A model generated the notes under the pieces. It saw only the letters and a program-made list of their open reading frames with translations. It was not told where the DNA came from and searched no databases. A stretch of DNA of 44,442 nt from Thermoplasmatales archaeon SW_10_69_26 (GTDB lineage Archaea > Thermoplasmatota > SW-10-69-26): positions 1 to 44,442 of the forward strand of contig PXUB01000028.1 in the NCBI GenBank assembly GCA_003009755.1. The letters are read 5' to 3'. The number at the start of each line of letters is the position of its first letter. Position 1 is the first letter of the stretch. A program made the position numbers and the translations under genes. Below are positions 1 to 44,442 of the stretch, piece by piece.

Positions 1-347
1 CGAGGGCGGGGCCAGCGGGAACCACGCGACGAGTGCGGCGACGGGCATGGTGACCGAAGCCGGCAGTCCCTAGCCTGGGCTAGGCGTTGCCGGGTTGGTT
101 CACCCCACCACGCGGCCTGTCCGGGCAGGCGATGGGCGTGTGCCCGGGCGGTCGCTTCTTCTCACCTGTTCACGGGGATACCGGGGCTCCGCGCGTTGGG
201 GCTCACCACGCGACTGGCTTGGGCCCCCGGATCCTCTCCATCTTCTTCTCCTCTCCGAGATCTCCCCTTCGTGACTCCGTCAGGCCCGGGAACCGTGGGG
301 TCCGGGTTGGGAACGTTTATGGTAAGGGGTCCGCACTTGGGAGAGTG

Positions 348-929: not shown

Positions 930-1064
930 CGCTAGACTGCCGGTCTTGTTTTGCTTAGGCTCTCGCGCTGGTCTCAGCGTGACCAGGTCGCGGAGCCCGA
1001 GGAAACCAACCCTCGAGGGTTGTCGATGGAGTGCGACAACGAGGGGCCCGCCGCAGACCGGCGC
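930..1064. ncRNA. Structured non-coding repeat element, copy 1 (candidate ncRNA or non-autonomous mobile element)
   Basis: Shares CGCTAGACTGCCGG, GCTCTCGC, GCGGAGCC, TCGATGG and GCGACAACG in order with 44026-44138. Internal hairpins CTGGTC/GACCAG and CAACCC/GGGTTG; closing stem GCCGGTCT(939-946)/AGACCGGC(1055-1062). Confidence 0.6.
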
Positions 1065-1120
1065 ACCAGAACATTTCCGGTCCCACGGTCTCCCCCTACG
1101 AGCGGGTGGCCAGGAAATGT

Positions 1121-1483
1121 TCACCAAATCGAGGGGGAGCGGTCTCCGTGACCCCCCTCACGGCGGAGGGTGCCGCCCAGAGGCACATCGCGGTCGGGTG
1201 CCAACAGCACCGGGCCCCCGTCCTCGCCCGGCACGCCGACGGTCAAGACCTGGCTTTCGAACCCGGCGATGGACACGGTGCCGAGATCGGTCACGCACAG
1301 GACCTGGCGGCCGACGAGCTCGCCCGTCTCGTAGTTGAGGCCCAGCTGGGCCGCGGAGCGCACCGGCTCGTCGCCGAGGTCGATCTCGAGCTTCACCATG
1401 CCCGGCGTGCGCGCCTCCTCGAAGGGCGCGGCCTCGCGGATGCGCCCCACCTGGATCGTGTTGGACAGCGGCGTGTCGGCCAT
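1121..1483 (-). CDS. csaA: CsaA-like tRNA-binding OB-fold protein / secretion chaperone
   Basis: IQVGRIREA..KLEIDLG..SAAQLGLNY..LVGRQV..IAGFESQVLTVG..PDRDVPLGG matches the CsaA/Trbp111 family. Start taken at MADTP (1483). Confidence 0.85.
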   Translation of the reverse strand: MADTPLSNTIQVGRIREAAPFEEARTPGMVKLEIDLGDEPVRSAAQLGLNYETGELVGRQVLCVTDLGTVSIAGFESQVLTVGVPGEDGGPVLLAPDRDVPLGGTLRREGGHGDRSPSIW

Positions 1484-1592
1484 CGCCGGGACGATGGCTC
1501 GATAGGGCATGAGGGTTGCGGCACCGCTGTCGAGACGGAGAAGAGAGGAAGGGGAGGTCGGGCGGACTTAGCCGCCCGCCGCCGTGCGCGCC

Positions 1593-43794: not shown

Positions 43795-43965
43795 GGTGTC
43801 TCCACCGCTCGGCTCTCCGCCACTCGTCCTTCTCCGTGCCCTCCCCGCCGCCCTCCCTTCCAGCCTCCTCTCGCCTCCGTTCCTTCCCTCCTCTGTGCGT
43901 TCTCCGTGCTCTCTGTGCCTCTCTGGTTGGCTCTCTGTGCCCTCCGCTGGGCTCTGTGCCCTCTA
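43795..43965. repeat. Pyrimidine-rich tract with six CTCYGTGC octamers
   Basis: Copies at 43832, 43891, 43902, 43911, 43933 and 43952; A is nearly absent on the + strand. Confidence 0.8.
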
Positions 43966-44025
43966 CACCCCGATGTCCTTCCGCCGGAACCCGGCGATGC
44001 CGACGAGCACGAGCGCGGTCCCCAG

Positions 44026-44138
44026 CGCTAGACTGCCGGCTGTGCTTGGGTTAAGCTCTCGCCGCCCTCAGGCGGTGAAAGCGCGGAGCCGAGACGAAGG
44101 AGTAGCCGGAGGCTACTTCGATGGCGAAGGCGACAACG
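44026..44138. ncRNA. Structured non-coding repeat element, copy 2 (same orientation as 930-1041)
   Basis: Same ordered conserved blocks as copy 1. Equivalent hairpins have different sequence (CCGCC/GGCGG; AGTAGCC/GGCTACT). Confidence 0.6.
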
Positions 44139-44201
44139 CTTGGAAACCTCACAATTCGCAAGGATTGTATCATCGCCGCCTGAGGGCGGCCTCGCGTGGA
44201 G

Positions 44202-44320
44202 GCGCCGGTCTGAGGCGGGCAATCTTGCTGTACGAATCGAAGATTCGTACGCAGCCGAGATCGGTCCGGACGGCGGACCGATGCTCGGCCGTTGTCGCCC
44301 TCCGTCGAAAACCCAAAGGG
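44202..44320. repeat. Inverted partial copy 3 of the structured element, with two extra hairpins inserted
   Basis: 44202-44220 matches the reverse complement of 1046-1064 (18/19). 44290-44314 matches the reverse complement of 1017-1041 (22/25). Confidence 0.65.
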
Positions 44321-44323
44321 CGA

Positions 44324-44442
44324 GGGTCTGTAGTTGTGTCAGTCACCTGCGAACCGTTCGCCACAACCCCCGCTTGGAGGATCCCCCCTACCCGCCTCCA
44401 TGACCGACGAGATGAGTTTGACCGAGTTCTACGAGCGCTTCC
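44324..44442 (+). mobile_element. Probable left end and transposase N-terminus of an IS1595-family element (truncated by window edge)
   Basis: The ORF from ATG 44400 reads MTDEMSLTEFYERF, resembling the (M/S)LxEFxxxFP start of IS1595/ISXO2 transposases. Similarity to the repeat element stops just before. Only 14 codons are visible. Confidence 0.45.

Follow-up and report, generated by a model that had tools for sequence, protein, structure and literature searches.

Our results make it very probable, at roughly 85%, that two hairpin-rich regions lying 43 kb apart on contig PXUB01000028.1 of the archaeon SW_10_69_26 are broken copies of a single family of miniature inverted-repeat transposable elements, or MITEs, of the IS630 type, which is present at about 100 loci in this genome and whose ends are common to a resident insertion sequence (IS) of the IS630 family. 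The window, that is, the whole 44,442-nucleotide stretch analyzed here, corresponds to the entire contig C28 of a 2.82-Mb, 49-contig, 95%-complete assembly (designated G000). Its small-subunit (SSU) rRNA identifies the assembly as archaeal, with 1498 bits for the archaeal SSU model and 1109 bits for the bacterial one. A preliminary description made from the window alone had taken the two regions, here called copy 1 (from position 930) and copy 2 (from position 44026), for a multicopy noncoding RNA (ncRNA) or a nonautonomous mobile element. Of these two suggestions, the mobile element is borne out by terminal inverted repeats (TIRs), TA flanks, and ends shared with an IS630-family element, whereas the results speak against copies of an ncRNA gene. 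The family belongs to the MITEs by its TIRs, its small size, its many dispersed copies, and the ends that it shares with an autonomous IS.

Sequence and extent of the two copies in the window

Global alignment of positions 930-1045 with positions 44026-44140 gave 89 matches over about 116 positions and a score of 74, far above the scores of 500 shuffles (-7.1 +/- 9.1, maximum 15). The ordered blocks that had been reported to be shared by the two regions are all present, namely, CGCTAGACTGCCGG (930-943 in copy 1 and 44026-44039 in copy 2), GCTCTCGC (959-966 and 44055-44062), GCGGAGCC (990-997 and 44083-44090), TCGATGG (1023-1029 and 44118-44124), and GCGACAACG (1033-1041 and 44130-44138). The hairpins said to keep their position while changing their sequence were found within a base or two of where they had been placed: the first is CTGGTC/GACCAG in copy 1 (968-973/981-986) and CCGCC/GGCGG in copy 2 (44062-66/44071-75), and the second is CAACCC/GGGTTG in copy 1 (1007-12/1017-22) and AGTAGCC/GGCTACT in copy 2 (44101-07/44111-17). 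Copy 1 also harbors the closing pair GCCGGTCT/AGACCGGC and, following it, the stem GAACATTTCC/GGAAATGTTC (1069-78/1113-22). Each copy opens with CTAG (at 932 and 44028), a tetranucleotide as rare in the window as had been claimed, with 14 occurrences against the 126 expected from base composition. This pair of copies was missed by a generic repeat finder, whose output for the window consisted mainly of periodicity in coding sequence.

Similarity to the family continues to approximately position 1185 in copy 1 and to approximately 44325-44345 in copy 2, and the window accounts for 2 of the 97 family loci in the genome (932-1185 and 44029-44345). The parts of the two copies are as follows.

933 to 934, no strand assigned: TA flank of copy 1, putatively one half of a TA target duplication; C, TA, and the first G of the element form the CTAG at 932-935

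935 to 966, plus strand: left-type (L) TIR of copy 1, consisting of GACTGCCGG, 16 nt, and CTCTCGC; an exact match to the terminal pattern, typed L1

967 to 1045, plus strand: inner L arm of copy 1, with GCGGAGCC, the CAACCC/GGGTTG side hairpin, TCGATGG, and GCGACAACG, which pair with the right-type (R) arm in complete elements

1046 to 1185, plus strand: central module of copy 1, with the GAACATTTCC/GGAAATGTTC hairpin (1069-1122), delimited by comparison with complete elements and by the merged BLAST matches of the element library (932-1185)

44029 to 44030, no strand assigned: TA flank of copy 2, within the CTAG at 44028-44031

44031 to 44062, plus strand: R TIR of copy 2, consisting of GACTGCCGG, 16 nt, and CTCTCGC, identified by pattern match and typing

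44063 to 44138, plus strand: inner R arm of copy 2, with the CCGCC/GGCGG hairpin, GCGGAGCC, the covarying side hairpin AGTAGCC-GGA-GGCTACT (44101-44117), TCGATGG, and GCGACAACG

44139 to 44289, plus strand: center of copy 2, a string of near-perfect hairpin modules common to other copies in varying combinations

44290 to 44327, plus strand: innermost L arm of copy 2, with CGTTGTCGC, CCGTCGA, and AAACCCA, the inverted complement of 44118-44138

The central module of copy 1 has copies with 95 to 96% identity on contigs C1, C6, C34, and C36. The CTGGTC/GACCAG hairpin is private to copy 1, with a different sequence at that position in other L-type arms. Copy 1 lacks the R arm and the second terminus, and in copy 2 the outer L arm is absent together with its terminus. 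As neither retains more than one terminus, the two copies are expected to be immobile relics.

From about position 44328 (44328-44442), visual inspection suggests a likeness to the end (GAGGGTGTGTAGCTGTCTCAGTTCACC) of another repeat. At two contig edges (C22 near 95 and C25 near 172250), this other repeat is inserted in the loops of MITE hairpins, and it probably represents one end of a larger IS; the window contig stops 115 bp after the break in copy 2. Just upstream of copy 2 is a CT-rich stretch (43870-43970) that has weak copies, 77 to 89% identical over 34 to 103 nt, at about a dozen loci, and CT-rich sequence also precedes another R-type end (C40:2520).

Size of the family and structure of complete elements

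With copy 1 as a query, BLAST returned 87 matches in its own genome, and with copies 1 and 2 together the matches clustered into 75 loci. A library of complete elements raised this to 97 merged loci covering 20,559 bp, or 0.73% of the assembly. The earlier figure of about three copies is thus replaced by 97, the window itself holding only two loci and an unsupported 9-mer, which is the following feature.

60 to 68, minus strand: a third GACTGCCGG 9-mer adjoining a CTAG, without further similarity to the family; possibly a decayed end or a chance match

Since 15 of 100 shuffled versions of the window contain at least three matches to this 9-mer, we regard the match at 60-68 as unsupported. Family repeats are found no more than 150 bp from 30 of the 98 contig ends in the assembly, and the family therefore accounts for many, about a third, of the assembly breaks.

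The genome contains 65 matches to the strict terminal pattern TAGACTGCCGG-N15/16-CTCTCGC (32 forward and 33 reverse), compared with none to the reversed pattern used as a control. A looser scan gave 118 candidate ends, 94 of which could be assigned to four types (R, 41; L, 33; X, 9; Z, 11). Adjacent ends facing inward formed 27 pairs, consisting of 19 L+R, 6 X+Z, 1 Z+R, and 1 untyped pair; 2 of the 19 L+R pairs were typed by eye, as the automatic rule mislabeled them or failed. The span was 79 to 668 bp in 26 of the 27 pairs, and the remaining pair, with a span of 1341 bp, contains a foreign insert. In the minimal form, represented by four elements of 97 bp, an L end is simply joined to an R end.

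Complete elements carry inverted GACTGCCGG-N15/16-CTCTCGC at both ends and, when aligned side by side, are long imperfect palindromes in which the R arm is complementary to the L arm: GCTCTCGC pairs with GCGAGAGC, GCGGAGCC-GAGACGAAGG pairs with CCTTCCTCGG-GCTCCGC, TCGAKGKCGA pairs with CCGTCGA, and GCGACAACG pairs with CGTTGTCGC. These complementary blocks are interspersed with side hairpins specific to each arm and enclose a variable central string of hairpin modules, and the presence and absence of modules across complete elements form a mosaic. As copy 1 represents an L arm and copy 2 an R arm, both read inward, the ordered blocks that they share are the two arms of one transposon family, and the hairpins that change sequence at a kept position are the arm-specific side hairpins.

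A nested insert of approximately 330 bp was observed in the family element at C14:16715-17382 (L050:10215-10882) and also in an arm at C4:61548. With its ends GGTGCTGA.CG and CGTTCAGCACC and a duplicated CTCCCGAG, it represents yet another, third type of small mobile element, one that uses the MITEs as insertion sites.

An IS630-family element with shared ends

Two inward-facing ends of a rarer type enclose 1128 bp at C32:89547-90674. This element has TA flanks on both sides, starts with GACTGCCGG, and contains two overlapping reading frames. The first matches HTH_33, HTH_32, and HTH_29, and the second matches DDE_3 over positions 2-145 of 146; the NCBIfam model transpos_IS630 is matched by the first frame at profile positions 9-133 (96.6 bits) and by the second at 142-293 (92.8 bits). 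The frames meet at GCTGAAAAAAACCTAG, which includes a run of seven A residues (A7), and a -1 shift at this run leads into the DDE frame. According to PMC5009743, some members of the IS630 family make use of a frameshift or of transcriptional slippage. This IS contains the only DDE_3 match in the assembly.

Comparison of the L terminus of copy 1 with either end of the IS showed that the outer 9 to 11 nt and the CTCTCG spacing are identical. Over 34 nt, MITE ends gave 21.6 to 25.2 matches to the IS ends, and the two IS ends gave 25 matches to each other. Relatives of the transposase with 31 to 36% identity were found in 3 of 60 related genomes, and none in those of the same family. Among plasmids there were 328 matches, all below 60% identity; the best 15 were 33 to 38% identical, and the top-ranked one, with 36% identity, is annotated as an IS630 family transposase.

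Target site

TA is present on both sides of 22 of the 27 pairs and precedes 88 of the 94 typed ends. The base before the TA at these 88 ends is C in 72 cases, T in 10, A in 6, and never G, compared with genome-wide frequencies before TA of 32.5% for C and 50.6% for G (excess of C at the ends, binomial p = 2e-21). This C, the TA, and the first G of the element make up the CTAG noticed at the start of both copies. The genome as a whole contains 999 CTAG sites where 7963 would be expected, an 8-fold depletion, and family termini make up 75 of these sites (7.5%). A preference for CTAG is reported for IS630 (PMC2170065), where a 1991 paper by Tenzen and Ohtsubo is cited whose title names preferential transposition to TA in 5'-CTAG-3'. 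We infer that the TA is a target duplication rather than a part of the element; insertion into TA with duplication of the TA is described for IS630-family elements in PMC2170065.

Public sequencing runs in which a 10-kb segment of this genome is represented are halite metagenomes from three studies, possibly including the run from which the assembly was made. A 14-kb stretch with three complete elements was compared with the contigs of four runs. In all four, the summed depth of bins containing an element was several-fold to tens-fold above that of their neighbors, indicating that the family is multicopy in independent samples from 2022 as well. Most run contigs break at repeats, and among the contigs listed a single one, from run X3 (depth 4), bridges the site of a family element: it joins L050:12919 to 13080 with ATC between them, skipping a 155-bp X+Z element. 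It keeps four letters, the length predicted for an empty site with a single TA. The contig shows the element to be absent and agrees with a 2-bp duplication by length only.

In the same comparison, contigs of three runs (X2, X3, and X4) precisely skipped a 180-bp stretch at L050:11548-11727 (C14:18048-18227) that is bordered on either side by the 9-bp direct repeat GGCCCAGAG. The stretch is a MITE-like insert unrelated to the family, has a 9-bp duplication, and is polymorphic in the population.

Distribution of the family

The strict terminal pattern was absent from all 60 relatives searched, many of them incomplete, which comprised 5 genomes from its family, 15 from its class, and 40 from its phylum. 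Among 185,579 species genomes it had six single matches, in unrelated bacteria, and there were 25 further matches, 21 in metagenome contigs and 4 in viral contigs; seven of all these matches are one conserved low-GC sequence. None of the pattern matches in species genomes, metagenome contigs, or viral contigs had BLAST similarity to the element library.

Weak BLAST-level matches were found in 2 of the 60 relatives, one of which (G002) belongs to the same family and another genus. G002 harbors two elements of approximately 400 bp with the same architecture (C22:32847-33244, L116; C120:812-1214, L118), with R-like and L-like ends, a hairpin of the CAACCC/GGGTTG type, and TA on both flanks, and with GACTTCCGG termini instead of GACTGCCGG. 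No IS630 transposase was found in G002 with the IS transposase as a query. The family thus predates the genus and later expanded in the lineage of the window.

Hairpins and their covariation

The preliminary description had supposed that the fold of the repeats is under selection. A complete element of 395 nt has a predicted fold of -212.5 kcal/mol (z = -6.6 against shuffles), and the corresponding values for copies 1 and 2 are z = -3.7 and z = -6.3. For covariation, 25 distinct R/X arms were aligned and two helices were counted.

Columns 73-79 with 83-89: side hairpin helix (44101-44117 in the window); 93.6% of cells paired, 5 of 7 pairs changed on both sides

Columns 32-37 with 42-46: helix of the CCGCC/GGCGG type; 80% of cells paired, 1 of 5 pairs changed on both sides

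The covariation score for both helices together was 0.310, compared with 0.138 +/- 0.020 after shuffling, and none of 500 shuffles reached 0.310; when the partners were slid against each other, the score was at most 0.071. The stems of the side hairpin include AGTAGCC/GGCTACT, AATGCCC/GGGCATT, AAGGCCC/GGGCCTT, and CTTGCCC/GGGCAAG, and a half-changed intermediate, AATGCCC...GGGCCTT, is present at C19:5708. The L and Z arms have analogous stem variants, read by eye without a formal count: AAACCC/GGGTTT, CAACCC/GGGTTG, AAACCCC/GGGGTTT, GGAACCC/GGGTTCC, and GCAAACC/GGTTTGC. In the helix of the CCGCC/GGCGG type, one pair is unpaired in 17 of the 25 sequences. The supposition of a selected fold is thus partly borne out: the side hairpin keeps its pairing and this helix does not, and a purely mutational cause may equally account for the former. 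These counts are to be read with the caveats that the copies are related and represent few independent events and that two rows of the alignment are misaligned by a gap. Because of a 1-nt indel that distorts it, ungapped identity between R arms was left out of consideration. The variants of hairpins and arms occur in several combinations, which suggests exchange between copies.

These data raise the possibility that the hairpin modules of the MITE are selected for a function of their own, either as RNA (stability or processing of untranslated regions [UTRs], or small RNAs) or in a structure-specific form of transposition. The extent of pairing and the double-sided changes in the side hairpin, the half-changed intermediate, the L/Z variants, and the retention of the architecture in the sister genus all speak for such a function. 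An RNA-level role for hairpins has a precedent in the Correia/NEMIS elements of Neisseria, MITEs whose transcript is, in the account in PMC2229807, a long stem-loop with a proposed effect of RNase III on neighboring mRNAs. If the elements described here are transcribed, Correia/NEMIS could serve, by analogy, as a model for the role of their hairpins; the two are unrelated in sequence. The number of distinct stems is a mere handful, however, and the cell counts are inflated by the relatedness of the copies and by the reshuffling of variants, while the other helix counted is poorly kept. In addition, near-perfect palindromes can acquire matched changes by intrastrand template switching, without selection. 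The paired changes fit both selection on a DNA or RNA hairpin and palindrome-templated mutation, and we consider a selected function of the hairpins, judged from their sequences, to be unlikely.

Alternatives to a MITE

A family of free-standing structured ncRNA genes, be it a new class of ribozyme or a regulatory RNA, would account for the strong predicted folds, for part of the covariation, and for the lack of a match to a known RNA family. No Rfam family was matched: the whole window had no hit at the gathering threshold, and at E<=10 there were two meaningless short matches near copy 1 and none near copy 2. No tRNA genes were found in the window. What such genes would leave unexplained are the inverted termini with TA flanks, the 97-bp forms made of two ends alone, the mosaic of modules, the fusion of one copy to the end of an open reading frame (ORF; see below), the confinement of some 100 copies to a single lineage at the level of the genus, as against 2 copies in its sister genus, and the ends common to a transposase-encoding IS. 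The scaffold that had suggested a ribozyme is formed by the inverted-repeat arms of one transposon read inward. We consider this alternative to be very improbable.

It is scarcely credible that the repeats are guide-type RNAs of an RNA-guided mobile element, such as the bridge RNA of IS110 or the omega RNA of IS200/IS605, as had also been proposed. A conserved scaffold with variable segments would be in keeping with such an RNA, and the genome does encode two IS110-family DEDD transposases (C3:88341-88769 and C2:62978-63406). A distance of more than 17 kb separates these genes from the nearest family locus, however, and neither a TnpB-type domain nor a Y1 transposase was found in the 95%-complete assembly. 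Moreover, inverted repeats bounded by TA are unlike the ends of IS110 or IS200/IS605, the variable segments are self-complementary hairpins rather than single-stranded guide loops, and the partner is a DDE transposase, which recognizes double-stranded ends. No transposase of a kind that uses guide RNAs was found near a family locus. Both IS110-family genes are located near contig ends and are unrelated to the MITE loci.

Palindromic repeats of the REP/BIME kind, spread by a RAYT-type tyrosine transposase, resemble the family in their high copy number, their hairpin units, and the mosaic composites described for BIMEs in PMC2817692, as far as that account goes; with no Y1_Tnp domain (PF01797) found in the assembly, and with 32-bp inverted termini, TA flanks, and a matching IS630 element all pointing to DDE transposition, this explanation has next to no likelihood.

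Proposed mobilization and points against it

From these sequence features, we propose that the IS630-type MITE family moves as follows. A DDE transposase supplied in trans would bind the ends of approximately 32 bp, excise the element, and paste it into a TA, preferably within CTAG, with duplication of the TA. The candidate source of the transposase is the single IS630-family element at C32:89547-90674, whose two frames are joined at the A7 run. The family has expanded to about 100 loci in this lineage, and of the copies in the window, copy 1 keeps the left arm and the center and copy 2 the right arm, the center, and the inner left arm.

A number of observations weigh against the IS630-type reading or against parts of it. 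Random genomic 34-mers gave on average 17.6 matches to an IS end and as many as 24. Overall identity therefore carries no weight for the link to the IS, which depends on the outer 9 to 11 nt being identical, on the fixed CTCTCG spacing, and on the TA flanks. The L/R family has diverged from the IS at end positions 10-25, which means that the true mobilizer could be another transposase that is absent from the 95%-complete assembly. The A7 run that divides the transposase of the IS is either a programmed shift or a fatal lesion. At the target site, 5 of the 27 pairs lack TA on one side. No clean empty site that keeps its TA was recovered, as the bridging contig of run X3 reads ATCA where GTTA was expected, a difference at three positions. 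No paralogous empty site was found in the genome with joined flank, TA, and flank modeled for the 27 pairs, nor was a cross-genus empty site found: the flanks of the G002 elements map to C25 and C49 of G000, where the intergenic DNA is unalignable. Finally, simple cut-and-paste movement would not call for covariation of the side hairpin, which hints at some additional constraint.

The MITE remnant at the end of a tRNA_bind ORF

Copy 1 overlaps the end of an ORF on the opposite strand.

1121 to 1510, minus strand: ORF of 129 amino acids with a tRNA_bind domain (Pfam PF01588 over residues 19-112)

The last 13 or so codons and the stop codon of this ORF fall inside the MITE remnant (1124-1165, minus strand). 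A stop is visible in two of the five tRNA_bind orthologs from the same family (L101 and L105), and both proteins end two residues past a GG(L/T)L motif; none of the five aligns into the tail of about 13 residues found in the window. The MITE remnant is therefore the source of this tail and of the stop codon that follows it. Synteny provided no empty site for copy 1, as the ORF that neighbors it in the window is absent at the tRNA_bind loci of the five same-family genomes. ORF translations gave the impression of an acidic proteome.

DISCUSSION

The nearest parallel on record is RUP (repeat unit of pneumococcus) of Streptococcus pneumoniae, for which mobilization by IS630-Spn1 has been proposed; it is 107 bp in length, is present in 108 copies, has ends like those of IS630-Spn1, and targets TA (PMC2229807). 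As far as that account describes it, RUP is like the family reported here a short noncoding element with about 100 copies per genome, ends resembling those of a resident IS630-family element, and insertion at TA. RUP is uniform, 107 bp long, and bacterial, whereas the present family is archaeal, ranges from 79 to 668 bp, is modular, combines two end types in each element, and has long complementary arms with many internal hairpins, which make up nearly all of its sequence.

MITEs of Sulfolobus, reportedly described by Redder et al. in 2001, are said to be nonautonomous elements thought to be mobilized in trans by transposases of resident ISs through shared ends, and one of them is said to have been linked to an IS630-family element. 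These MITEs and the family described here are both archaeal and nonautonomous; they differ in phylum and in sequence. That MITEs exist in archaea is already established (PMC2229807). With IS630, ISY100, and the Tc1/mariner elements, the present system shares a transposase with HTH and DDE_3 domains, found in the partner IS, and a TA target; the copies in the window, unlike those elements, have no transposase and one end each. As in REP/BIME repeats, hairpin units form high-copy mosaics, but REPs lack long TIRs and TA flanks and depend on RAYT. No description of this element was found in the limited literature collection that was searched, nor one that combined miniature inverted repeats, haloarchaea, and IS630.

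Our results replace a candidate for a new structured or guide RNA with a concrete annotation, an IS630-type MITE family for which the types of ends, a likely autonomous partner, and the condition of the two copies in the window are now described. They indicate that the C terminus of a conserved gene product, along with the stop codon, is contributed by a MITE remnant, and they reveal a lineage-specific burst in an uncultured halite archaeon, with about 100 loci compared with two elements in the sister genus, in a genome that is 8-fold depleted in CTAG, the preferred target of the element. The family is an ordinary class of element that is unusually rich in hairpins, a known kind of element and not a new one, and the question that it poses, why its hairpins stay paired, is a modest one. 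It is possible, though we think it improbable, that the subterminal and central hairpin cassettes are kept by selection, because a transposase or host factor reads the structure of the DNA or because some 100 copies seed RNA modules for the processing or stability of UTRs. The former, if true, would be new for the IS630/Tc1/mariner superfamily. The family is in any case a natural data set of hairpins that keep their pairing through changes in sequence, and it could serve to separate selection from palindrome-templated mutation.

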